Shown piece by piece: positions 16,561-61,257 of a DNA stretch of 64,000 bases (its first letter is position 1; each line of letters opens with the position of its first letter). This DNA comes from a phage. The notes beneath the pieces were generated by a model. It did no database searches. It was not told where the DNA came from and saw nothing but the letters and a program-made list of their open reading frames with translations. Location: the NCBI GenBank assembly GCA_016389475.1, contig GCA_016389475.1_3042.1; one strand, 5' to 3'. The position numbers and the translations under genes are program-made.

Positions 16561-16725
16561 TTACTCTTCTTTTTCTTTAGATTCCTCTTTTTTCTTTTTA
16601 GGAATCTGTTCAGGACCTTTATTTACTACAGCACCTGACGTTGTTCCAGTAGAGATATTTTCAGGATTACCACCTGAATCTCCAGCAACCATATCTTCTT
16701 TAATAAATTCTTTATATGTTTTCAT
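16561..16725 (-). CDS. Lys/Glu-rich micro-ORF (54 aa), 61.1 position
   Basis: Hand translation MKTYKEFIKEDMVAGDSGGNPENISTGTTSGAVVNKGPEQIPKKKKEESKEKEE; fills gap exactly. Confidence 0.4.
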   Translation of the reverse strand: MKTYKEFIKEDMVAGDSGGNPENISTGTTSGAVVNKGPEQIPKKKKEESKEKEE

Positions 16726-42783: not shown

Positions 42784-43104
42784 TTATAGCGTAATCCATT
42801 CTCGTACTATCTGAGTTACTACACGTTCACGGGGCTCGACTAGTTCAACAGTCGGAACTGCATAATACCAGTCAGAATGATAAGAACCTGACCGAGATTC
42901 ATTTACCGCTACATGTACATTATGTTTTGGACTAAAGTAAACACACTGACGATATTGACATTTACCATCTTGCACCCAGTCTTCTATTTCGACAGGTTTA
43001 AGATAATCGGAAAAATCGAAATCATAGTTTTCCGAAAATGCATCATGGTCTTCAATGATTTCGCTCAGAACTGCATCAACATCTAATTTATTTTCAATAG
43101 TCAT
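42784..43104 (-). CDS. hypothetical protein (106 aa)
   Basis: ORF track. Confidence 0.5.
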   Translation of the reverse strand: MTIENKLDVDAVLSEIIEDHDAFSENYDFDFSDYLKPVEIEDWVQDGKCQYRQCVYFSPKHNVHVAVNESRSGSYHSDWYYAVPTVELVEPRERVVTQIVREWITL

Positions 43105-43114
43105 TTTTCACCAA

Positions 43115-43324
43115 TTAATTTCGCAATTTATTAAGTTCTTCATCATCAATCCAGGATTCTAGTCCTGATGGCAGGTCACATTCAATTTCCCAAAGAAGTT
43201 CTTCAATTTTCTGAAGACGATCTAATTCTTCGGCTGGAATAGTAACCATTGACGGAGCTCGTGATACATTAATATCGTAAATCATATTTACCCCAGTTTG
43301 ACCATGCAATCGCCGTATTTCCAC
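43115..43324 (-). CDS. hypothetical protein (69 aa)
   Basis: ORF track. Confidence 0.45.
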   Translation of the reverse strand: MEIRRLHGQTGVNMIYDINVSRAPSMVTIPAEELDRLQKIEELLWEIECDLPSGLESWIDDEELNKLRN

Positions 43325-43503
43325 TTAGAAATAGACTTTTCACCATTAGAATAATAAACTTCGAGTTTAGCACGATTATTTTTAATTTGAATAACCTTGG
43401 CTGTCATCAAAGTTCCATACCCATAATAAACTGCAACCTCATCACCTACATATACCGCGCTTCCGCGGTAGTCATGGATATAATCGGTTCCTTCGAGCAT
43501 CAT
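43288..43503 (-). CDS. hypothetical protein (71 aa)
   Basis: ORF track. Confidence 0.45.
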   Translation of the reverse strand: MMLEGTDYIHDYRGSAVYVGDEVAVYYGYGTLMTAKVIQIKNNRAKLEVYYSNGEKSISKWKYGDCMVKLG

Positions 43504-43763
43504 TTAAAGTATTCCCGCAATTGGTCAAATCCACCAATATGACTTCCATCTGGAGCGAATACCTGCGGCATTGTCAATCCAATTTGAGTATCACGACCTA
43601 GTTTAGTCAGAAGCTCAGCGATTTTCTCATCATCAAAAACACCTTTTTCCGGCATAATGTTGATAAATTCAAACGGCTGTTTCTTCACGGTCAAAAGACG
43701 TTTTGCATTATCGCAATACACACATTTATGAATGTTGCTATCATAACCATATACTTTAAACAT
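43500..43763 (-). CDS. nrdC: thioredoxin/glutaredoxin NrdC
   Basis: ORF track 87 aa; CVYC redox motif. Confidence 0.85.
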   Translation of the reverse strand: MFKVYGYDSNIHKCVYCDNAKRLLTVKKQPFEFINIMPEKGVFDDEKIAELLTKLGRDTQIGLTMPQVFAPDGSHIGGFDQLREYFK

Positions 43764-43764
43764 A

Positions 43765-44007
43765 TTATTCCTTAATTCCTAATACTTGTTTAAAAGTCTC
43801 GTCGTAATCAAGACTTTGGCCCGTTTGTTCTTTATGTTTGTATATAATATCACTTACTTCTGATAGCATATTTTTATATGAACGAGTTAAAGCAGATTTA
43901 AGCACGCTGTATCTATCAGGAAATTTACCATGTTCATTATAATAAGCTATTGCTAATTCACGGACTGCCTTTTCAGCAGCCTCCATATATTCTTTACGCT
44001 TGGTCAT
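43765..44007 (-). CDS. hypothetical protein (80 aa)
   Basis: ORF track. Confidence 0.5.
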
Positions 44008-44009
44008 TT

Positions 44010-44399
44010 TTAATCCAAAATATTATTAGGCATTGGTTGAACACTCACAAGTTCTTTAAAGAACTCAGTAGAGTCAGGCAATTTAACCATTTCCGGAGCA
44101 TGCTTACTGAATTTATGTTTACATTGACGGCATTTATATTCAAGCTCTGGTTTACGCCAGTTAATCAATTGAACTTGTTCAGTACCGCATTCAGGGCAAT
44201 TAGGAACGTTTTTAGAAGCTCTTTCACGTCGTTCAACCATAGCCATAATAGCATCCCATGCTGGAGGTTTAAAATCTAAATCGTCGCAGCCGTGAATCTT
44301 TCCACGCATTTCCATATCATCTTCCTCACCAGCCATAATAATTTTAATTAAACTGGAATTACTTGAAGCTGCAATGTCTTCTAATAAACGCTTTTTCAT
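44010..44399 (-). CDS. zinc-ribbon protein (129 aa)
   Basis: ORF track; CPECG...CRQCKH. Confidence 0.5.
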
Positions 44400-45322
44400 T
44401 TCAATACCTCAATAGCATTACGTAAACCATTTGCTTTGGCGGTTAAAGCCTTAAGAACTTTAGTATGCTCTTCAATTTGTTTTTCAACTTCAGTCAAACG
44501 GACATTGAGATATTCACGTTCTTCTTTCATAGTATCATTTCCATGATTGGATTTTGGTATAGGTTTAAATTCACTAGGGTCCTTTAATTTAATAACAAAT
44601 TTAGTTTCAAACAGTGAAAGACCATAATTCGTATTATCATCAAAGGATTTGACTACATCCATATCAGATAATAACACGCGCAAATTATAAGCCAAAGAAC
44701 TAATAGTTTCATTGTGTTTATTAGCTTCGCGTGGTTTCATATACGGAAGATTTTTATATATCTCATGCGGAGCGCAAACGATAATTGACAATTCAAATTG
44801 TCCATTCTGGGACGATGGAATGAATTTAGCCGTAACCCAGTCTTTTACATTCACATTAATAGTACGGTTATCACCATGACAAAACAGTCTACGAGAATGC
44901 TTAAAAAGCATATTCACGTTATTATTGAATTCGTGTGAAAATTCACTAGCAAATTTTTCTTTACTATCTTTAGAAAACCATTCTTCTAAATAAGTTCTTT
45001 TCACGTCGTTAATAATATTAAATGTAACAACACTAGCATTTGATACATTAGTCTTAATGTAGCTTGGATACATAAATTTTTTAACATTATTAACAGCTAT
45101 CACAGAAGATAGTAATCGGGAACGTTTGAACCACTCGAGCAAAGAACCAAGAGAATGTGAATACGCATTTTGTGTATCTTTACAAATATGGTTTTCCCAT
45201 CCAATATAGTCTAAAAAATCACGAAGAATATTATTGATTACTGCTCTGTGTCCGATTTGATAATTACGGTGTTTAGTAATAAGACTGTCAAAATAATCAA
45301 TATAATGTTTACGAGTTTTCAT
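44396..45322 (-). CDS. coiled-coil-tailed protein, paralog family member 1 (308 aa)
   Basis: ORF track; N-terminus MKTRKHYIDYFDSLI...AVINNIL; C-terminal ~40-aa heptad-like segment. Confidence 0.6.
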   Translation of the reverse strand: MKTRKHYIDYFDSLITKHRNYQIGHRAVINNILRDFLDYIGWENHICKDTQNAYSHSLGSLLEWFKRSRLLSSVIAVNNVKKFMYPSYIKTNVSNASVVTFNIINDVKRTYLEEWFSKDSKEKFASEFSHEFNNNVNMLFKHSRRLFCHGDNRTINVNVKDWVTAKFIPSSQNGQFELSIIVCAPHEIYKNLPYMKPREANKHNETISSLAYNLRVLLSDMDVVKSFDDNTNYGLSLFETKFVIKLKDPSEFKPIPKSNHGNDTMKEEREYLNVRLTEVEKQIEEHTKVLKALTAKANGLRNAIEVLK

Positions 45323-45373
45323 GTTCTTCTCACTTGTTAATGATTTATACTCCGAGCCATCCTTGGCTTTAAA

Positions 45374-46375
45374 TTACTTAATTAACTGTAAAGCTTGTTC
45401 AAGACGATCCAAGCGATTAACAGATTCTTCCCAAATCTTTTTAGCCTTCTCATATTCTTTCTGCGCTTTATTAGAAATTTCTAGAACTTCTTTATAAGCT
45501 TTTTCTAGTGCAACAACTTCTGGACGAATTTCTACCGGTTCAAGTGAATCGTCAAGATTATCCATTAGTTCCTCAAGGGTAGTTTCTTCTTTAGGAGTAT
45601 TCACAATTTCTTCGCATTTTTGTTGGTAAATTTCTTTATCAGTTAGTGAATAAGCACATTTCACTTCACGAAGACTAATTACAATTTTATATCCTTCCCA
45701 ACCACCAATATTTTTGAAAGGATATGTATGAATACTTTTTACAGTTTCCATACAATCCAAAGCCGTCTCTAATTGATGAGTTATAGTGCTAGCAATTGAG
45801 AAAAATTTATTAATATTCTTTTGGTTAGCTTCTGGTGTAAAAAATTCATAATTCACAAAAATAGCTACTTTATTTTTATCAAGCTCATATTCTTTTACGA
45901 TAATCATATCAGAAGCCAAAGGATGAATTTGACGATAATCGCCATAACATAATTTAGAAGCTGATTTTAGAATTTGTCCTTTAAAAAGTCTGAAATTACT
46001 AATCCAACGACGAGTAAAAATATTCTTAGGGTCTTCTTTGATATTAAGATGATAAGAATTAACATCACCGAACCAATTGTATCCTATTACACCTTTAGTT
46101 CGTTTAATTTCTTTCCCAAAATTACCAAGAATATCCCGATTAACTAAATATGAAAGAAGACGAGACCCTTTAAAGATTATCTTAATATCATCTTTATCTA
46201 CACGGCTAGAAATTTCACGAACTTCATGAATAAATTTACTGGAAGAAACAATACTTGCATCAATACTGCTGAGCCATTGATTGATAATAGAAAGAACAGC
46301 ATTCTGACTAGACATGGGTTTAACTTTATCATCAATAACCCTATTGAATGATTTGATATATTCGTTACGAGTCAT
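45374..46375 (-). CDS. coiled-coil-tailed protein, paralog family member 2 (333 aa from ATG)
   Basis: ORF track extends to 46426 above the promoter -10; ATG at 46375 with GAGGAG RBS; MTRNEYIKSFNRVI...AVLSIIN resembles member 1. Confidence 0.6.
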   Translation of the reverse strand: MTRNEYIKSFNRVIDDKVKPMSSQNAVLSIINQWLSSIDASIVSSSKFIHEVREISSRVDKDDIKIIFKGSRLLSYLVNRDILGNFGKEIKRTKGVIGYNWFGDVNSYHLNIKEDPKNIFTRRWISNFRLFKGQILKSASKLCYGDYRQIHPLASDMIIVKEYELDKNKVAIFVNYEFFTPEANQKNINKFFSIASTITHQLETALDCMETVKSIHTYPFKNIGGWEGYKIVISLREVKCAYSLTDKEIYQQKCEEIVNTPKEETTLEELMDNLDDSLEPVEIRPEVVALEKAYKEVLEISNKAQKEYEKAKKIWEESVNRLDRLEQALQLIK

Positions 46376-46403
46376 ATTAATCTCCTCAGTAGAAAGTAAG
46401 AAC

Positions 46404-46433
46404 ATTATACCACATCCTTGTGGCAAAGTAAAC
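46404..46433 (-). promoter_or_regulatory. T4-type early promoter, near-duplicate of 1546-1575
   Basis: attataccacatccttgtgg-c-aaagtaaac, one mismatch versus the rIIA.1 promoter. Confidence 0.6.
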
Positions 46434-47452
46434 TAGTTCAGTGCATTTAATGCACTGTTCAGTTTAGAACGTTGCTTTGTCAGATTTTGAACCCTTGACT
46501 GAGCTTGTTCTAACGCCTTTTCAGCTTCTAGCACTTCATTGGTCGCTTTAACGAGTTCATCATCTACTGCCTTGATAGACTTCTCAATCGCATCCGCGTG
46601 CCATTTTTCAACAGGTTTAAGACTCGGATTTTCAACAGGAAGAAAATTCACTTTATTGAATTTCCATGCATCATTATTACCTGAACTATACATCCAAAAT
46701 TTAGGATCGTTTGATAAGTAATTGGATAAATTTAAGTTATCTTGTACTTCCTGCTTTTTCTCTTGCGGGACTTCGTCCTTTCTCAAAAAATCGTATTTAA
46801 ATGAAACGATCATATCAAGTTCATATGATGTTGTATCTAACTTAAATCGTTCAAAACGAGGTAAAATCTTAGACTGAACAGCGGCAACAACATCCATATA
46901 CTTAAATGCTTCTGTCAACTGTGATTTAAGGCATTCACAAATTGAAAGAGAATTTTTTGTATTAGGTTTAAAGCTAATTCGTGCAGTTCTATTATTTTCT
47001 TTTAATGGTCTTACTTCCATCTGAAGAGTATAACCATCAAATTTCAGGTTCTTTAAGTTATTGTCAGAACCTTTTAATCGACTAGCTGTCGACAAAATTT
47101 GCTTTAACTGTTTACGGAATAGAGCAATAAATCTCCATTCAATACGATAATGATTGGGATTGAAAAATCCAGATGATAAATCAACCTTACTCTGACCAAC
47201 ACCTTGAACAAATAGAGGATTTTTATAATCAATAGTTTTACAGAAATCGGTGAGCTGCTCACGAGCAGTCATTTGTGTAATATATCCCGCTTTACTAAAA
47301 TGACGTAACCATTCACTGCTATTCATATACTTAAAGTGAATGGAACTATTAACTCTATCAGGGTCTAAATTATTTTGGCACAAAAATGTCATAACATCAC
47401 GAGTATAGCTGGCATTACGAACCATATCTTCAATTTGAGAACGAGTTTTCAT
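46433..47452 (-). CDS. coiled-coil-tailed protein, paralog family member 3 (339 aa)
   Basis: ORF track; N-terminus MKTRSQIEDMV; C-terminal coiled coil. Confidence 0.6.
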   Translation of the reverse strand: MKTRSQIEDMVRNASYTRDVMTFLCQNNLDPDRVNSSIHFKYMNSSEWLRHFSKAGYITQMTAREQLTDFCKTIDYKNPLFVQGVGQSKVDLSSGFFNPNHYRIEWRFIALFRKQLKQILSTASRLKGSDNNLKNLKFDGYTLQMEVRPLKENNRTARISFKPNTKNSLSICECLKSQLTEAFKYMDVVAAVQSKILPRFERFKLDTTSYELDMIVSFKYDFLRKDEVPQEKKQEVQDNLNLSNYLSNDPKFWMYSSGNNDAWKFNKVNFLPVENPSLKPVEKWHADAIEKSIKAVDDELVKATNEVLEAEKALEQAQSRVQNLTKQRSKLNSALNALN

Positions 47453-47460
47453 AGTGTTCC

Positions 47461-48348
47461 TTAAGATTTAAGTAAATCAACAATTTTAATTAACTTTTCA
47501 CGCTCAGATTTAGCTTTACTACTCAATCCAGATAGTCTAAAGATTTCATCGTCATATTGTTGAATAGAAATATTCAGCTCTTCAATTTGCTTATTAAAAT
47601 AATCAATTTGCTCAGAATGTTTTTCGTTACTACGAACTGGTACAGGTTTTGTAGGCAATTTAGTTGAACTGGATTCATCCGGGCGATAAATTAAAATACA
47701 ACTTGAACCAATTGGACATTTTGCACCAGATGAATATTCTAATGTTCCAGATTCTTTTAAAACTTCAAAAGCTAAACAGAGATGATGACCCATATTGACA
47801 TAATCAGTAGAGCAAGCTCTGATGTAATAATCATCTCCACGAGTACTAAATTTAAAGCATTTAAGGTCTTCTGTATTATTGGTCTTAAAAATCATTTGTT
47901 TATCTAGACCTTTAGCTAATCGAGCGCCTAATGCTAATAATCGTCGTTGATTTTCCCACAAATCTGCAATCATTTGGTCAAATGATAATTTTGGCATTAG
48001 TCGACCATAAAGGTCATATCCTTTATTATAATTACGAAGAATTTCACTCGCATTAATACGAGACAATGCTCCAATTTTATTAAGGGCTTTCATGATGCGA
48101 TTAGATAAACTCATTCCAGATCCGTTTGTTCGCTGTAAATGTTTTTCTAATCCAAATCCAATATCAACTTTAAATTTATCTAAAATTTCAGCATGAACAT
48201 CTCTGTCAATAACATTCAAATCCAAAGTTGGGTTAAATCTATGAAAAAATTTATCTGGCTCTCCACGACGAAGTACAGTCCATTCATTCAATTTTTTATT
48301 AACTAAAGATTTAATTACTGTATTGACATTATTAATTACTACTGACAT
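47461..48348 (-). CDS. coiled-coil-tailed protein, paralog family member 4 (295 aa from ATG)
   Basis: ORF track from GTG 48384; ATG at 48348 with GAGGA RBS; C-terminal coiled coil. Confidence 0.55.
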   Translation of the reverse strand: MSVVINNVNTVIKSLVNKKLNEWTVLRRGEPDKFFHRFNPTLDLNVIDRDVHAEILDKFKVDIGFGLEKHLQRTNGSGMSLSNRIMKALNKIGALSRINASEILRNYNKGYDLYGRLMPKLSFDQMIADLWENQRRLLALGARLAKGLDKQMIFKTNNTEDLKCFKFSTRGDDYYIRACSTDYVNMGHHLCLAFEVLKESGTLEYSSGAKCPIGSSCILIYRPDESSSTKLPTKPVPVRSNEKHSEQIDYFNKQIEELNISIQQYDDEIFRLSGLSSKAKSEREKLIKIVDLLKS

Positions 48349-48355
48349 ATTTTCC

Positions 48356-48763
48356 TCACTCAATTTCAATTTTACTAAATACACAGAATATGATGGAAAA
48401 GACTATATAAGCACCGCATACAGATTGAACTAATACCATTCCAAAGAACCAAACGATATTATCAAACAATGTCTGTTTTACGTCGAAAGGACGTAAACTT
48501 ACAGTAATATTATCACCTTTTTCTATTGAAGAATACATCTCTGGGGAAATATATTCACTAAATCTATAACCGTCTTTGAGTTCATATACGGCAATAAACG
48601 ATAAACTAGACCCCTTTCCTTGAGTTCCTGTAATGGTATTAACTACAGTAACATCATAATCTTTATAATGCATATAATCATTAATAGCATAATAACCATA
48701 TGCAATTACTATACATAAACAACATATCAATAAATTCAATCTTTTAATTATCAACTGTTTCAT
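48356..48763 (-). CDS. membrane protein (135 aa)
   Basis: ORF track; N- and C-terminal hydrophobic segments. Confidence 0.55.
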   Translation of the reverse strand: MKQLIIKRLNLLICCLCIVIAYGYYAINDYMHYKDYDVTVVNTITGTQGKGSSLSFIAVYELKDGYRFSEYISPEMYSSIEKGDNITVSLRPFDVKQTLFDNIVWFFGMVLVQSVCGAYIVFSIIFCVFSKIEIE

Positions 48764-48818
48764 AATAATCTCAATTAAAAGGGCTTAGAACCATTATACC
48801 ATCCTTGGTATAAAGCGG

Positions 48819-49346
48819 TTATGCGAGTACCGTCTTTAACCGTTCTTCAAATTTCCGAAGAGTGTTCTGGCGTTCAGCTCTTTGCTTTTTGTAAGTTTCA
48901 ATACGCTCTGAAATGAGAGTGTATCGTTCATTTACTGATTCTTTCATAAAATCAGGAATTTCACGAGAAGCTTTAATCTCATCAAATTTATCAATAACAG
49001 CTTGCTCTTCAGCAATTAAGTTATCATACATTAAAATATCTTTCTTGATGAACTCAATATCTTCTTGAGTTACACGAGATAATTTAGATGCTTTATCCTT
49101 TTTGTACTGTTCGTTAGTATCACGAGACCAGTGTAATGTACGATTTTTATTCGTATTTTTGTAAATTTCTACAATACCAATTTCATCAATAATAACGATC
49201 CAATTCCAACGGGATTTGTAAATTTGTCCTCCATCAACAGTGATTTCACCTCCGATTGAGATGTCATTAAAGAACTTGCTTTGTGCTTCAGATTTAAATT
49301 TACCGTCGTTATAATTTACCAGGTTGAAAATATCTTTAGCGTTCAT
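48819..49346 (-). CDS. hypothetical protein with C-terminal coiled coil (175 aa)
   Basis: ORF track. Confidence 0.55.
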   Translation of the reverse strand: MNAKDIFNLVNYNDGKFKSEAQSKFFNDISIGGEITVDGGQIYKSRWNWIVIIDEIGIVEIYKNTNKNRTLHWSRDTNEQYKKDKASKLSRVTQEDIEFIKKDILMYDNLIAEEQAVIDKFDEIKASREIPDFMKESVNERYTLISERIETYKKQRAERQNTLRKFEERLKTVLA

Positions 49347-49373
49347 GTTTTACCTCCAGTAGTTGATAGGTCT

Positions 49374-49402
49374 ATAATAACATAACCATAGACCTTGTAA
49401 AC
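49374..49402 (-). promoter_or_regulatory. T4-type early promoter
   Basis: gtaaac 49397-49402, ataata (TATTAT) 49374-49379, 17-nt spacer. Confidence 0.5.
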
Positions 49403-49404
49403 AA

Positions 49405-49692
49405 CTAAAAGAAACTTTTTTCGGTATTTTTTCCACTGAACCAAACAGACTTCGGGATTTTTTGTAATTTTTCAGATTTAAGTTTCTCTTCCTGTTCTTT
49501 CTTATATACACTCTTGTCGTACTGGAGCATCTCTAGGGCATTCTTTTGCAAACGATCTAAGGTAATTAAGGCTTTAGTTTTTCCTTTCAAGGAAGAGTCC
49601 TGGCGAACTTCCTCGCTATATTGCATCGTAGAACTAACCATACGATGTGCATACAGTTCGACTGCGGCTTTAATTTTTTGCATAAAATCCAT
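49405..49692 (-). CDS. hypothetical protein (95 aa)
   Basis: ORF track; AGAGGA RBS. Confidence 0.5.
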   Translation of the reverse strand: MDFMQKIKAAVELYAHRMVSSTMQYSEEVRQDSSLKGKTKALITLDRLQKNALEMLQYDKSVYKKEQEEKLKSEKLQKIPKSVWFSGKNTEKSFF

Positions 49693-49830
49693 AACATATC
49701 CTCTTTGATTTGTACATCATTATTTTTAAATATTTCTATGCCCTCAGTAGGTTCCTGGTGTCCTTCTTTGAGGTAAGCCATATGATTATTCATCTTTATG
49801 GCTTTTGTTACCTCAGAACTTCCTATAAGC

Positions 49831-50799
49831 TTATTTCAGTAAAGTAACTTCCGAGATTTCTTCCCAACCATCTTTATCAGTTGAAATAAAATCTGCTACA
49901 TAAAGAGCCGTACGTAATGATACATTGCGAAGACGAGATACGTTAGCCTTCATCCAGGACAATGCTTTATACGTTTCTGCATCCGTCAGACCACGTTTCT
50001 GCATCATGTCAGTAGATAATATTACATCTTCAACTCGAACCATAATCTCTTCATTAGAGTGTACTCCAAGGTCGAGATACACTGAACGAGATACTAAAGC
50101 TTGAAGGTGTGGAGCAAGTTTCGAACCCCGTTCTAACTCTTTATCGATATCAACGTTTGTAATGAAAACGATAGTACCTTCAAACTCAAATTCTTTATCA
50201 ATACCCTTATCCTCGAGATAAGATGACGCAGTGCTCCAACAAACTTTGCGTTTATCTCCGGTATCTAATGCTGCTTTAAGAAGGTTCAGGATGTCCATAT
50301 CTGAGAATACGTCAACGTCATCGATTAAGAGAACGCTGTCTTCATCACGGTTGAGCCAAAGTTGTTCGTAAAGGCCAATACCAGAGATTTTACCATTAAT
50401 GCTTTTGTATTTGATGAAACCGTTATCATTAGCATTATTAAGTGCTTTATCCAGAGAATACGTTTTACCAATACCTGCTGCTCCCGAGATAATTAATGAA
50501 CGAATGTTTCCGTTAATAATACCATTCGTCATCATTCCCATAACATTAAATCTTTTATTAATGCGGGTTTTCATATCTTCATACGATTCTTTAACTTCTT
50601 CAACTTTTACACCATCATATGAAATGTCTGATTTGTAAACCCAAACACCGCGACGCTTACCGTCAATTTCAACAAAAACTTTACCATCTCCTTGTGCATC
50701 TACCGGAGCATTATCTGGGAACCATTCACCTAAGAGCTCAAAAGTTCCAGAGATTTCTTTACCGAAGTAGATACCCTTATTGATAGTTACAGTTTTCAT
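49831..50799 (-). CDS. P-loop ATPase (322 aa from ATG)
   Basis: ORF track; Walker A GAAGIGKT and Walker B LLIDDVD; ATG at 50799. Confidence 0.65.
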   Translation of the reverse strand: MKTVTINKGIYFGKEISGTFELLGEWFPDNAPVDAQGDGKVFVEIDGKRRGVWVYKSDISYDGVKVEEVKESYEDMKTRINKRFNVMGMMTNGIINGNIRSLIISGAAGIGKTYSLDKALNNANDNGFIKYKSINGKISGIGLYEQLWLNRDEDSVLLIDDVDVFSDMDILNLLKAALDTGDKRKVCWSTASSYLEDKGIDKEFEFEGTIVFITNVDIDKELERGSKLAPHLQALVSRSVYLDLGVHSNEEIMVRVEDVILSTDMMQKRGLTDAETYKALSWMKANVSRLRNVSLRTALYVADFISTDKDGWEEISEVTLLK

Positions 50800-50833
50800 T
50801 TTATTCTCCAAATCCGTATCAGTTGATAGTTGT

Positions 50834-50863
50834 ATAGTACCATAAAGCTTTATGCTTGTAAAC
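50834..50863 (-). promoter_or_regulatory. T4-type early promoter
   Basis: gtaaac 50858-50863, atagta (TACTAT) 50834-50839. Confidence 0.55.
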
Positions 50864-50893
50864 CGTTTTGTGAAAAATTTTTGAAATAAAAAA

Positions 50894-50911
50894 GGGAGCC
50901 CGAAGGCTCCC
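50894..50911 (-). terminator. intrinsic terminator with C(UUCG)G tetraloop
   Basis: gggagcc-cgaa-ggctccc followed on minus RNA by UUUUUUAUUU. Confidence 0.65.
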
Positions 50912-50913
50912 TA

Positions 50914-51927
50914 TCATTTATAATAACTTCGGTGGTTTTCAAGATAGACCTTCTCAAGGAAGTCATCCCAGAAACCCATGTCTACTTTTTGCTGCATACC
51001 GTTCTTAGAAGCTTCAGTAGATGCTGCTTCTACTTGATCGACCACATCTTCCAAAAACTCTTGAACTGTTTTAAATGGATGTTTACCCAACTTCACGTCG
51101 AGAATAAATGGAGCATCTTGGAGTGGATAAACCAAGTCACCAGTTTTGTAAATTTCCAATAGTTGGAGTCCACCACGACAAGCATGACTCAGAGCTTTCC
51201 AGTCAATGCCTTCATTAGCTTCGGCTTTACGAGCACGTTCACCATATTCAGCATCTAATTTATTCAGTGACTGCTTAAGCTCAATAAGAGAAAGTGTTGT
51301 CTGATATTTACGACCCAACACAGTGTAGAACGTTTGCGGGCCTGTTTTCTCGTGATTATGGAACACCCATTCACAGAATTCGTTTTCTGGAAGACGATGC
51401 TTAATATCTTCAACTTTAGTGCGACGCTGCTTAATAGAACCATCTTCTTGGTAATCAACCCATTGCTCGGGGATTTGATTAACTACTTTCAATACATCAC
51501 GTAATGCAGCCAAACGAGAACCCTTGACACCGTATTTAGAAGCTTGCTTGCGAACATATCCTAAATAGGATTTCATGTTAGTCGTATAAAAACGAGAACG
51601 GTTGTCTTGAATAAACTTCCACACATCAGGCAAATCAGATTTAACCACTAGTTCAGGTGGAGTGTGAAGCATATCCAATGCTACAGTTTCACCATCTGCT
51701 GCTAATTTAAAGAAATATTTAAGACTGTATAGTTCATGGTCAATATCATCTTTAGTGTTTTTAGATGATGTGTTGTTAGTGTTTTTACTCATGTGCTCTT
51801 TGACATTTCCGATAAGAATATCACGAGCAGGAGGAACAAAAATTTCTTTAAAATCTACATCAGATTCTGGGGTAGAAGTTCCATAAAGATGACTACCAAA
51901 ATAGCTTTTCATTACTGTTTTCATCAT
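50914..51927 (-). CDS. nucleotidyltransferase-fold protein (337 aa)
   Basis: ORF track; YFGSHLYGTSTPESDVDF matches minimal NTase G-S-x(9-13)-D-x-D motif; later VALDML third acidic site. Confidence 0.6.
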   Translation of the reverse strand: MMKTVMKSYFGSHLYGTSTPESDVDFKEIFVPPARDILIGNVKEHMSKNTNNTSSKNTKDDIDHELYSLKYFFKLAADGETVALDMLHTPPELVVKSDLPDVWKFIQDNRSRFYTTNMKSYLGYVRKQASKYGVKGSRLAALRDVLKVVNQIPEQWVDYQEDGSIKQRRTKVEDIKHRLPENEFCEWVFHNHEKTGPQTFYTVLGRKYQTTLSLIELKQSLNKLDAEYGERARKAEANEGIDWKALSHACRGGLQLLEIYKTGDLVYPLQDAPFILDVKLGKHPFKTVQEFLEDVVDQVEAASTEASKNGMQQKVDMGFWDDFLEKVYLENHRSYYK

Positions 51928-52385
51928 TCAGCCTTATATTCAATAACAGGACATACTTTAGCTTTACGAGCTTTTAAAAATTCAACGATAATCGATTTCT
52001 TGGGTTGAATAGGAGGTAAACCTTTATACGCCCTATCAATATTTTCTACGTGTAAAGCATAATCCTTTTTCCATTTATAATCTTTATATTTTTCACGCAA
52101 ATGTGCAGGAATAACAAATGAACCGATAATAAGTAAAACAACCAAAAGCGCAAGTATAAATGCTGATGGAAGCAAAGTCCATAAACTACCAAAAATAAGC
52201 CAACGCTGTAGGCTTTCTGCACAAATAATTGTTAGCCCTACGAGTATAGCACATCCAAAAATAGAAACGAAAAATGTAGGAATGGCAATAGACCAAAAAT
52301 ATGCGCATAGTGTCTTAGGTCGTTGCCATTCATCGTTAAACAATTTGAATAATTTATAGTGCCAAGAGTTTTCATTAATAATCAT
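51924..52385 (-). CDS. membrane protein (153 aa)
   Basis: ORF track; 2-3 TM segments. Confidence 0.55.
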   Translation of the reverse strand: MIINENSWHYKLFKLFNDEWQRPKTLCAYFWSIAIPTFFVSIFGCAILVGLTIICAESLQRWLIFGSLWTLLPSAFILALLVVLLIIGSFVIPAHLREKYKDYKWKKDYALHVENIDRAYKGLPPIQPKKSIIVEFLKARKAKVCPVIEYKAE

Positions 52386-52387
52386 AA

Positions 52388-52909
52388 TTATCCTTTCATT
52401 GAAGGCGTAACGGTTGTTAAATACTTAATCATAGCTTCAGCTTCTGATTTTGACAATGAAATTTCTTCATTGTTTTGACGAATAGAAATAAAATCCGGAT
52501 GACGGTCACCACCAGCTTTTAAAACACACATATAAGTATCAACTTCATCTTCAATATTTGAAATGATTGAAGCAGTTCCACATGAATGCGGTTTTTGATA
52601 AATCAATGCAGCTTTTCTTCCGCCATTTGACTGTTCATAAACTTTTAATACATCAAACAAATCACTTCTTTTATCAATAGCTAAAATGTTATTTTCATCT
52701 TCAATGTTAAATCCTTCGGATACTTCATAAAGTGTCACCCATAAATCGCCAATATCAATAACAGCATTTACTTTTCCATGACTTTCAAGAGCATGACAAA
52801 TTTTCTTGATTTCGTCATAACTCATTTTAATAATATCATCTCCTTGACTAAGAAAGATGTCATTTTTAAATTCAACACGAATTAAACCGCTTCCACTTGA
52901 AATAAACAT
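52388..52909 (-). CDS. hypothetical protein (173 aa)
   Basis: ORF track. Confidence 0.5.
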   Translation of the reverse strand: MFISSGSGLIRVEFKNDIFLSQGDDIIKMSYDEIKKICHALESHGKVNAVIDIGDLWVTLYEVSEGFNIEDENNILAIDKRSDLFDVLKVYEQSNGGRKAALIYQKPHSCGTASIISNIEDEVDTYMCVLKAGGDRHPDFISIRQNNEEISLSKSEAEAMIKYLTTVTPSMKG

Positions 52910-52915
52910 ATTTCC

Positions 52916-53473
52916 TCACTTTGAAATCATAGTTGGAATAACAGAATCAAGATAAGTCTTTAGTGCAATAGTTTCGTCTTTGGTAAATGTGACAATATGT
53001 GCTCGAAAATCATCAATTTGACGAATAGTTAAGACATCTCCATCTTCATAACATTTTGATACGTTTAAAACAGTTTCATCATTCTGATTGCAAGCGTTAG
53101 TAATAATAGCATTGCAATTTTTAAACCATTTTAAACTATGTTTTCTTTCATTAGAATAATAAAAATATTTAATCTTATCTATAAAACTATCCCAATGGAT
53201 AACTGATAAGCATATTGACTCGCTTTCAATATTAAATCCTGGGCATGAAGAATAAAAATGAATTTTATGCTCATCATTAATGCTTATAATTTTATCAGTA
53301 TAAGGATTTTCAATTTTGGTTAAATGAATGATTTCACTAGGCGTAAAATACAGCATATCGTCTTCTTGTGTCAAACGATACATATTATTTACTTTTTCTA
53401 TAGCCAATTCACCAAAAAGTGAACTAACTTCTAATACTAATCGTTTCATATTGATTCTCTTCGACTCGCTCAC
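52916..53473 (-). CDS. hypothetical protein (185 aa)
   Basis: ORF track. Confidence 0.5.
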   Translation of the reverse strand: MSESKRINMKRLVLEVSSLFGELAIEKVNNMYRLTQEDDMLYFTPSEIIHLTKIENPYTDKIISINDEHKIHFYSSCPGFNIESESICLSVIHWDSFIDKIKYFYYSNERKHSLKWFKNCNAIITNACNQNDETVLNVSKCYEDGDVLTIRQIDDFRAHIVTFTKDETIALKTYLDSVIPTMISK

Positions 53474-53607
53474 AATTACATACTCCTTTGAATAATATCA
53501 ATAATGTTGTTCACCAGATTATAGGTAAACAAAGGATAATTATATTGAATCATCACATACACAACAAACAAAATTTTCATTCTCTTCTCCTCAGTAGTTG
53601 ACAAGAT

Positions 53608-53637
53608 TACTATACCATAACCTTGCCAACTTGTAAA
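53608..53637 (-). promoter_or_regulatory. T4-type early promoter
   Basis: gtaaac 53632-53637, actata (TATAGT) 53608-53613. Confidence 0.55.
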
Positions 53638-53814
53638 CCATTAAATGGCGTTTTCAATAAAATTCTGAAGCTTTGTGTGAGCATCAACCATGATTTTCAT
53701 TTCTTCTTTGGCGAAAGCTGTACCTCTTTCCCGAGAAGAACATTCATAGTCAGAAACTGCATTAGCATATTCTTCGATTAGTTTCATTAAAAACATCTGT
53801 TTTTCAGTTTTCAT
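53635..53814 (-). CDS. micro-ORF (59 aa), absent from ORF track
   Basis: Hand translation MKTEKQMFLMKLIEEYANAVSDYECSSRERGTAFAKEEMKIMVDAHTKLQNFIENAI. Confidence 0.35.
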
Positions 53815-53998
53815 TATTCCACCTAATCATTTCAAGATATTGAACTAACTTAGCTTTAGATTTATCCAAATCCTTTTTAGCTGCTTCTATACCGTCGTAT
53901 GAATATCCTTCACAATGCTCAACTGCTAATTGATATGAATCTATTTCAATATCACGTGCTAATTTAATGATTTTTTCAAACTGTTCGCGTGTTAGCAT
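53804..53998 (-). CDS. hypothetical protein (64 aa)
   Basis: ORF track. Confidence 0.45.
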   Translation of the reverse strand: MLTREQFEKIIKLARDIEIDSYQLAVEHCEGYSYDGIEAAKKDLDKSKAKLVQYLEMIRWNNEN

Positions 53999-60783: not shown

Positions 60784-61257
60784 TTATTTGAACGATTTAA
60801 CGTACTGAATAGAACCTTTACTATTTACAAAGGCAATTTTACCATTTTTATTATACATGGTAGCAGTACGCTGATAGCCATAAGTTTGCTTACCAGATTG
60901 ATAACCAACTAATGCAAAATTATCTTCACCCATTTTATTCTGTTTAGCGCGAATGCGTTCATGACCATGTGCCATAAGAACCTTAGCATCACCAGTTACA
61001 ATGGATCGACGAGTTTTTTCATCTTCAACTGTATTAACAAAGTCGTCAAATGAATCAAATTTAGCATGAGATTTATTATACAGTTTTCCATCTACTGCAT
61101 AATTATATCCCTGTACATCCATCTCAACTTCTGTACCATCATCCAATACAGCAGTAATTTTCTGTCCTTTTTTAAATTTCAAAAGATCAGTAAAAGATTC
61201 AGCAATAATTTGAGAATTAATAGCTGCTTCAGTGATAAATTCTTGATATGTTTTCAT
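60784..61257 (-). CDS. capsid-targeted internal protein (157 aa)
   Basis: ORF track; N-terminal MKTYQEFITE resembles the T4 internal-protein capsid targeting sequence; sits in the ipII/ipIII slot upstream of e. Confidence 0.6.
   Translation of the reverse strand: MKTYQEFITEAAINSQIIAESFTDLLKFKKGQKITAVLDDGTEVEMDVQGYNYAVDGKLYNKSHAKFDSFDDFVNTVEDEKTRRSIVTGDAKVLMAHGHERIRAKQNKMGEDNFALVGYQSGKQTYGYQRTATMYNKNGKIAFVNSKGSIQYVKSFK

Follow-up and report, generated by a model that had tools for sequence, protein, structure and literature searches.

The 64,000-nucleotide stretch analysed here (the window; contig GCA_016389475.1_3042.1 of assembly GCA_016389475.1) comes from a Tequatrovirus and carries a tandem array of four minus-strand genes, the orthologs of phage T4 nrdC.3, nrdC.4, nrdC.5 and nrdC.6. 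A 5.4-kb query over the array matched 741 phage records; T4 is one of them, with 94% nucleotide identity, and the query is colinear with T4 positions 48706-53916. The T4 annotation maps onto the window gene for gene. The genes nrdC.3 (44396-45322, 308 amino acids), nrdC.4 (45374-46375, 333 amino acids from the ATG), nrdC.5 (46433-47452, 339 amino acids) and nrdC.6 (47461-48348, 295 amino acids from the ATG) correspond one-to-one and in the same synteny to their T4 counterparts, with protein identities of 91.6%, 88%, 95.3% and 97%, respectively. The original prediction, made from the sequence alone, had described four consecutive minus-strand genes of about these sizes, and the open reading frames (ORFs) bear this out. 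It could name no T4 counterpart with confidence, while clear ones exist; the orthology is one-to-one, but to no T4 gene with a housekeeping function.

The end of the array requires a correction. The earlier limit of 48384 is an upstream GTG, whereas the homologs of NrdC.6 begin with MSVVINN, matching the ATG at 48348, and a GAGGAA Shine-Dalgarno sequence is located 5 nt before this codon. The start in the T4 record is placed later, giving a protein of 275 amino acids compared to 295 in the window. For nrdC.4, a TTG-extended version of the ORF runs to 46426.

All four proteins are neutral to basic (isoelectric points 7.6-9.2) and soluble, and each has a full-length or near full-length match to a described family. 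NrdC.3 (residues 2-308, 1e-98) and NrdC.4 (residues 1-333, 5e-164) both match phrog_1435, and their homologs carry the precomputed Pfam assignment PF26897. NrdC.5 is assigned to PHROG 2351 and matches Pfam DUF7235 (PF23882) with 401 bits (cut-off 30), the alignment running from residue 1 to 339 and from model position 1 to 307. NrdC.6 matches phrog_2257 over residues 1-295 (1e-152), and its homologs carry PF26899.

The genes were predicted to be strongly diverged paralogs with a similar N-terminus, and this can be observed for three of them. In pairwise BLASTP only NrdC.3 and NrdC.4 give a significant alignment (26% identity over 168 amino acids, E 4e-5); the other pairs are below significance and require profiles. 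In hhalign, the NrdC.3 and NrdC.4 families align at P 3e-13, with reversed or shuffled control scores of at most 21, and by sequence the two proteins are unambiguous, clear paralogs. The NrdC.3/4 and NrdC.5 profiles also give a colinear alignment, at P 3e-5 and with a score of 44 (at most 17 for controls that were reversed or column-shuffled). Global-mode hhalign probabilities (88-96%) were not used, as their statistics are unreliable. Starting from NrdC.3/4, iterated hidden Markov model (HMM) searches through 413 ORFs, taken from the window and from 18 related loci, recruited 11 of 11 NrdC.5-type ORFs and not a single unrelated one.

The N-termini of NrdC.3 (MKTRKHYIDYF), NrdC.4 (MTRNEYIKSF) and NrdC.5 (MKTRSQIEDM) are similar, and a (K)TR.(E/H)Y(I) motif is kept in their orthologs from Tequatrovirus, Mosigvirus, Gaprivervirus and Dhakavirus; NrdC.6 lacks it. 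Together with the PHROG assignments, these alignments place NrdC.3, NrdC.4 and NrdC.5 in one family with high confidence. The identity of NrdC.3, NrdC.4 and NrdC.6 to NrdC.5 is only 10-25%. Most BLASTP pairs are non-significant, as would be expected if the similarity were due to chance and the array consisted of four unrelated genes, each ending in helices. With unambiguous homology of NrdC.3 and NrdC.4, a reproducible link to NrdC.5 and clean controls, this explanation is scarcely credible, and for these three proteins it is already refuted.

The C-terminal coiled coils of about 40 residues that had been proposed for all four proteins are also found. We used our own heptad score, calculated in 35-residue windows and ranked against all long ORFs of the window. 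It peaks in the C-terminal 45-60 residues of NrdC.3-6 and of the neighboring NrdC.8, at the 99.4-99.9th percentile, and this is the strongest heptad signal in 4 of 4 array proteins. The tails comprise residues ~263-308 of NrdC.3 (44399-44536, 99.6th percentile), ~282-333 of NrdC.4 (45377-45532, 99.4th percentile), ~279-339 of NrdC.5 (46436-46618, 99.9th percentile, the top score in the window) and ~238-295 of NrdC.6 (47464-47637, 99.4th percentile).

Conservation is highest in the tail and lowest in residues ~160-260 in all of the families, in line with the predicted divergence of the central regions. The NrdC.4 tail sequence NRLDRLEQALELLK is nearly invariant across three genera, and the NrdC.3 tail is 85% conserved compared to 70% in the remainder of the protein. 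The motif [KR]L..[AV][IL]..L[KN] at the extreme C-terminus is common to all families as well as to the single-copy relatives in other genera described below.

The AlphaFold2 model of NrdC.6 has a mean predicted local distance difference test score (pLDDT) of 78 and a predicted template-modelling score of 0.66. It consists of helices in residues 3-150, strands 165-170 and 173-178, a helix at 186-199 and strands 204-211 and 214-221, followed by a low-confidence linker and helices 242-271 and 277-294, which form the tail. The NrdC.3 model is poor (pLDDT 53), with only the helix 266-307 predicted confidently (pLDDT 81-93), although the order of secondary-structure elements in this low-confidence model is the same as in NrdC.6. 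The four proteins appear to share an architecture of a helical N-terminus, a variable β-β-α-β-β centre, a linker and an amphipathic heptad helix of ~45-60 residues.

Searches for functional relatives gave little. No sequence or fold relatives of the four proteins were found in the PDB, and a Foldseek search of BFVD with the low-confidence NrdC.3 model returned only the protein itself. Pfam, PADLOC and PDB sequence searches gave a functional match for none of the four, and what they returned, for example prefoldin, BRE1, BrxC and LmuB, was coiled-coil noise; the matches to PADLOC defence models were at the level of coiled coils (E ≥ 1e-3).

The position of NrdC.6 is less clear. It may be unrelated to the other three, with a convergent coiled-coil tail and a neighboring position, in which case the array would consist of three paralogs and one unrelated gene. 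It has a separate family in both Pfam and PHROGs, it lacks the (K)TR.EY N-terminus and has no significant BLASTP link to the others, the hhalign comparison of NrdC.5 and NrdC.6 falls short of significance, and HMMER iteration from a NrdC.6 seed leaves the families unmerged among the 413 ORFs. However, the hhalign alignment of NrdC.6 to the NrdC.3/4 profile is colinear and has P 2.7e-4, with a score of 37 against controls of at most 19. A coiled-coil tail by itself is insufficient for such a score, since NrdC.8, which has one, scores at most 18 against all four families. The same result rules out NrdC.8 as a fifth, truncated member of the family.

Two sets of bridging relatives connect NrdC.6 to the other proteins. 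Karamvirus CC31p082 falls in the NrdC.6 family (hmmsearch 1e-10) and Jiaodavirus FRZ284_194 in the NrdC.3/4 family (hhalign P 5e-8), and an alignment between these two proteins has P 4e-5. The NrdC.6 model matches UniProt A0A345AUV5 over its full length (Foldseek E 2e-5). We confirmed that this entry is the 335-amino-acid protein that Acinetobacter phage fHyAci03 encodes beside nrdC. AM101 has an ortholog of it with 97% identity, which in turn is a match to the NrdC.5 HMM (2e-6). The size, order of secondary-structure elements and terminal motif of NrdC.6 also correspond to those of the other three proteins. We consider NrdC.6 a probable distant member of the superfamily, its evidence being from profiles, structure and position and weaker than that for NrdC.3-5, and an unrelated origin an unlikely but serious alternative.

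The number of large paralogs differs between T4-like genera. Tequatrovirus has four, Gaprivervirus and Dhakavirus have three (nrdC.3 is missing) and Mosigvirus has three or two. Karamvirus, Jiaodavirus, Gelderlandvirus and the Acinetobacter Lazarusvirus contain one copy of ~324-335 amino acids just upstream of nrdC.2 or nrdC, highly diverged and in the same slot. None is obvious in the annotation of the Slopekvirus Matisse, where the profiles were not run. No relatives outside T4-like phages were found in an exhaustive HMMER search of 1.84 billion proteins with the NrdC.3/4 profile, all 8 matches being of the NrdC.3/4 type. Word-indexed homolog searches returned close orthologs only, and the related-locus search returned only five near-identical loci.

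The proposal of a locally expanded, fast-diverging family holds relative to the neighboring genes. Against other Tequatrovirus loci, the ratio of nonsynonymous to synonymous substitution rates (dN/dS) is 0.17-0.34 for nrdC.3, 0.18-0.31 for nrdC.4, 0.12-0.27 for nrdC.5 and 0.05-0.20 for nrdC.6, while nrdC, nrdC.8, nrdC.10 and nrdC.11 show 0-0.09 (nrdC.8 alone 0-0.05). The values for nrdC.3-5 are 3-5 times those of the neighbors and still below 1. Since the ratios of the family lie between 0.05 and 0.34, selection on it is purifying overall; the divergence is not of a runaway kind, and within Tequatrovirus NrdC.6 is conserved. Between genera, the identity of NrdC.5 falls to 24-28%, compared to ~78-92% for NrdC and NrdC.11.

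Within Tequatrovirus, nrdC.3 is dimorphic, with ~140 records at ≥90% identity and ~284 at ~60%. The difference between the alleles is centred on residues 86-262 (dN 0.49, dS 1.17; flanks 0.11-0.14 and 0.6-0.7), and this concentration of divergence fits the replacement of a central segment by recombination.

Several natural variants of the array genes can be observed. In the otherwise complete 169.6-kb Tequatrovirus genome IMGVR_UViG_2974742932_000001 (locus L003, 7054-7635), nrdC.4 is cut to 193 amino acids, and the gene is present only in part in OL964745 ('T4') and in Salmonella phage Manna. A 299-amino-acid protein (P0034) encoded in 167-kb metagenomic phage contigs is a natural nrdC.5::nrdC.3 fusion with nrdC.4 deleted, in which residues ~146-270 of NrdC.5 continue into NrdC.3 at ...NKVN|MLFKH.... 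It looks like the microhomology deletions reported by Srikant et al. in evolved T4. NrdC.6 of Shigella phage Sf25 (P0035, 378 amino acids) contains an internal tandem duplication of ~83 residues (IRAHSTDY...NKQIEEL twice), which covers most of the central β module and extends through the linker into the first part of the tail.

A function has been published for one member of the array. T4 clones that evolved with loss of a block containing nrdC.5 do not plate on E. coli ECOR17 or on MG1655 carrying ECOR17 dsr1 (PMC9391042). T4 nrdC.5, described as an early gene, restores plating on dsr1+ E. coli when supplied in trans (Srikant et al., eLife 2022, PMC9391042). The 339-amino-acid protein of the window is the ortholog of this protein, with 95% identity, the same position and a full-length domain match; the activity is known for the T4 protein against ECOR17 Dsr1, whereas the window allele is known by its sequence alone. 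The other genes are paralogs of nrdC.5 (nrdC.6 probably so), with similar size and the same tail.

The surroundings of the array point in the same direction. In work on T4 and T6, Gp49.2 inhibits OLD (PMC13096335) and NrdC.1 inhibits Septu (bioRxiv 10.1101/2025.11.20.689424), and orthologs of both genes are located next to the array (49.2 at 42784-43104, nrdC.1 at 43765-44007, minus strand). These inhibitor roles give the DNA between 49.2 and nrdC.6, both genes included, the look of an anti-defence island. As NrdC.5 disarms Dsr1, the other three proteins are good anti-defence candidates on the grounds of paralogy, neighborhood and evolutionary pattern.

Our preferred reading, to which we give a probability of roughly 55%, is that nrdC.3-6 are a paralogous, non-essential family within an anti-defence island by nrdC that antagonizes host immune proteins. 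The earlier suggestion of a host-interaction or anti-defence array is thus backed by published work for NrdC.5, and for NrdC.3, NrdC.4 and NrdC.6 such a role is predicted.

It is possible that these proteins would act as follows. They would be made early, given the description of T4 nrdC.5 as an early gene and the match to an early-type promoter before nrdC.4. The C-terminal heptad helix might drive oligomerisation, and the variable centre could provide the specificity, binding an oligomeric host immune protein in such a way that it is not activated. NrdC.5 would act in this way on the SIR2-type NADase Dsr1, and NrdC.3, NrdC.4 and NrdC.6 may target other defence systems or variants. A single copy in the ancestral slot would have given rise to 2-4 copies in the T-even lineages, and these would diversify as genes are duplicated or deleted and as alleles have their central segment replaced. 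Since the proteins are basic or neutral, we ruled out that they act as DNA mimics in the manner of Ocr or Arn.

A parallel for the proposed action of NrdC.5 is DSAD1 of phage SPbeta, a phage protein that also neutralizes a SIR2-domain, NAD+-depleting defence protein. DSAD1 is reported to bind the sensor region of DSR2 directly (e.g. PMC10973363, PMC11087589). The two proteins differ in that DSAD1 belongs to another phage lineage and has no sequence similarity to NrdC.5; in the case of NrdC.5, genetic suppression of Dsr1 is published, while binding is our proposal. A phmmer search with NrdC.5 gave no match among all PDB chains, which presumably include the 2024 DSR2-DSAD1 complexes.

The T-even anti-defence islands (dmd-tifA-adfA against toxins, 49.2 against OLD, nrdC.1 against Septu) are comparable as well. 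They also contain clustered, small-to-medium, non-essential genes of unknown fold that each disarm one host defence and are prone to amplification or deletion. Their genes are unrelated, whereas nrdC.3-6 would represent the tandem expansion of one family, in which the tail is conserved and the centre can be swapped.

A different division of labor has to be considered, in which only NrdC.5 is a counter-defence protein and NrdC.3, NrdC.4 and NrdC.6 have early host-takeover or regulatory roles, for instance as scaffolds or modulators of complexes. The strong conservation of NrdC.6 within Tequatrovirus and its presence in 742 phage records, compared to 554-658 for the others, would agree with this, as would dN/dS values below 1 for all genes and the lack of a functional pointer from PADLOC, Pfam and the PDB. 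Nevertheless, the phages can do without these genes, whose copy number varies, with natural deletions, fusions and truncations; the array is located among three experimentally supported anti-defence genes; and the variability of the centre and the dimorphism of the alleles suggest that diversification is driven by the targets. We therefore regard a restriction of the function to NrdC.5 as improbable, though it deserves about as much attention as an independent origin of NrdC.6.

Several observations weigh against the antagonist family. In the search of 1.84 billion proteins, the NrdC.3/4 profile did not reach NrdC.5 or NrdC.6 at a library-wide E ≤ 1e-3, and the non-significant NrdC.5-NrdC.6 alignment and unmerged HMMER iteration described above point the same way. 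The shared architecture is derived from one good model, that of NrdC.6, and from secondary-structure order, and oligomerisation is suggested by heptad periodicity only. NrdC.6 is 95-99% identical within Tequatrovirus, with dN/dS of 0.05-0.2, which is less typical of an arms race. On the host side, DSR1 was termed 'poorly characterized' as late as August 2026 (PMC13464706). We found no functional study of nrdC.3, nrdC.4 or nrdC.6 in the literature, the lone mention of nrdC.4 being a genome announcement, and no functional studies among the literature on the Pfam accessions of the family or on anti-DSR1 activity.

Beyond the antagonist family as such, we tentatively propose that the NrdC.3-6 proteins are immune antagonists from a modular family shaped by recombination, with a single ancestral copy beside nrdC in the sampled T4-like genera. 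Its conserved tail might give all members the same means of oligomerisation or docking and might let different paralogs form hetero-oligomers, and its exchangeable centre might recognize different host sensors. This more specific model is speculative. If it is true, the array constitutes a small diversifying repertoire of antagonists, in which each paralog or allele is part of a new defence/counter-defence pair.

The genes have long been annotated in T4 and the anti-defence role of NrdC.5 is published, so that the gain is incremental and does not amount to a new kind of system; it consists of testable candidates. In the literature, we found no previous description of one family with a conserved tail and variable centre, of a single positional relative in other T4-like genera, or of the nrdC.3 dimorphism. 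Although no lytic phage is better studied than T4, a function is lacking for about half of the T4 genes. The hypothetical proteins NrdC.3, NrdC.4 and NrdC.6 become three specific candidates for counter-defence screens, because they are relatives of the anti-Dsr1 protein NrdC.5 and are encoded beside inhibitors of OLD and Septu. Work on the family could also explain differences in host range among therapeutic T4-like phages.

A further comparison concerns the internal proteins of T4, IPI, IPII and IPIII, which are likewise accessory T-even anti-defence proteins encoded at hypervariable loci, with slightly similar N-termini. They are smaller than the NrdC proteins, are packaged by means of a capsid targeting sequence and are cut by the prohead protease. 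The targeting sequence ends in a (L/I)-x-E protease site. NrdC.3, NrdC.4 and NrdC.5 could in principle be packaged and injected with the DNA in the same way, as their N-termini resemble the targeting sequence MKTYQEFIAE. MKTRKHYIDY, M-TRNEYIKS and MKTRSQIEDM share an M-K-T plus aromatic/Ile pattern with MKTYQEFITE, the start of the ORF at 60784-61257, and IPI and IPIII are themselves anti-defence proteins (PMC9391042).

Packaging is nonetheless very unlikely. Only ~4-5 of the 10 residues agree, the NrdC N-termini have no (L/I)-x-E cleavage motif at the corresponding position, and the single-copy relatives in other genera do not contain the N-terminal motif. In addition, nrdC.5 is termed an early gene and is active when expressed in the host cytoplasm, and we found no virion-proteome evidence for packaging.

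The window contains two ORFs that do start with sequences of this type. The 157-amino-acid ORF at 60784-61257 (minus strand) probably encodes an internal head protein. A 54-amino-acid ORF at 16561-16725 (minus strand) starts with the capsid-targeting-like sequence MKTYKEFIKE and may encode a small packaged protein or be a remnant.

Transcription signals can be proposed for parts of the array. A match to a T4-early-type promoter precedes nrdC.4 (46404-46432, minus strand), with GTTTAC, a 17-nt spacer and TGgTATAAT, followed by GAGGAG and the ATG. In the promoter scan it scored 10/12 with an extended -10 element and is a consensus match only; over the whole region, promoter-like sites are no more frequent than in shuffled sequence. 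The gaps from nrdC.7 to nrdC.6 and from nrdC.6 to nrdC.5 are only 7 and 8 nt, which makes it probable that nrdC.7, nrdC.6 and nrdC.5 are co-transcribed.

The last codons of nrdC.5 contain a perfect 8-bp palindromic hairpin, CAGTGCAT-TAA-ATGCACTG (46439-46457), which ends 3 nt before the stop codon. The early-type promoter of nrdC.4 follows directly. As the hairpin lacks a T-run, it may serve in RNA stability or processing and not in termination.

The genes on either side of the array can be identified by T4 annotation and orthology. A membrane protein and a coiled-coil protein had been described next to the four genes, and they correspond to T4 nrdC.7 (48356-48763, minus strand), a small protein with two hydrophobic segments that is not a member of the family, and nrdC.8 (48819-49346, minus strand), which encodes 175 amino acids with the C-terminal heptad tail mentioned above. 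Downstream, the block at 42784-44399 (minus strand) contains 49.2, nrdC, nrdC.1, nrdC.2 and two further small ORFs. The nrdC.2 protein (44010-44399, minus strand) has 129 amino acids and a CxxC...CxxC zinc ribbon, compared to 104 amino acids in the T4 version. The start of nrdC.2 and the stop of nrdC.3 have 4 nt in common, and at least three nrdC.2 alleles are found in Tequatrovirus (100%, 78% and 60% identity).

In Karamvirus, Jiaodavirus and Gelderlandvirus, a conserved protein of ~260 amino acids is encoded upstream of the single-copy relative (L013 15639-16415, L016 15144-15932, L018 14418-15200), with 68-74% identity among the three genera. It adjoins the relative in two of them, and two small ORFs intervene in CC31. 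Local searches gave no matches to it among the ORFs of the window or of other T-even loci.

Further upstream of the array, nrdC.10 (49831-50799, minus strand) encodes an AAA/STAND-like ATPase. Compared to other Tequatrovirus loci, it shows a dS of ~1.0 and 92% protein identity, while the comparison with Mosigvirus gives a dS of 0.29-0.37 and 86% identity. This pattern suggests a mosaic or exchanged allele.

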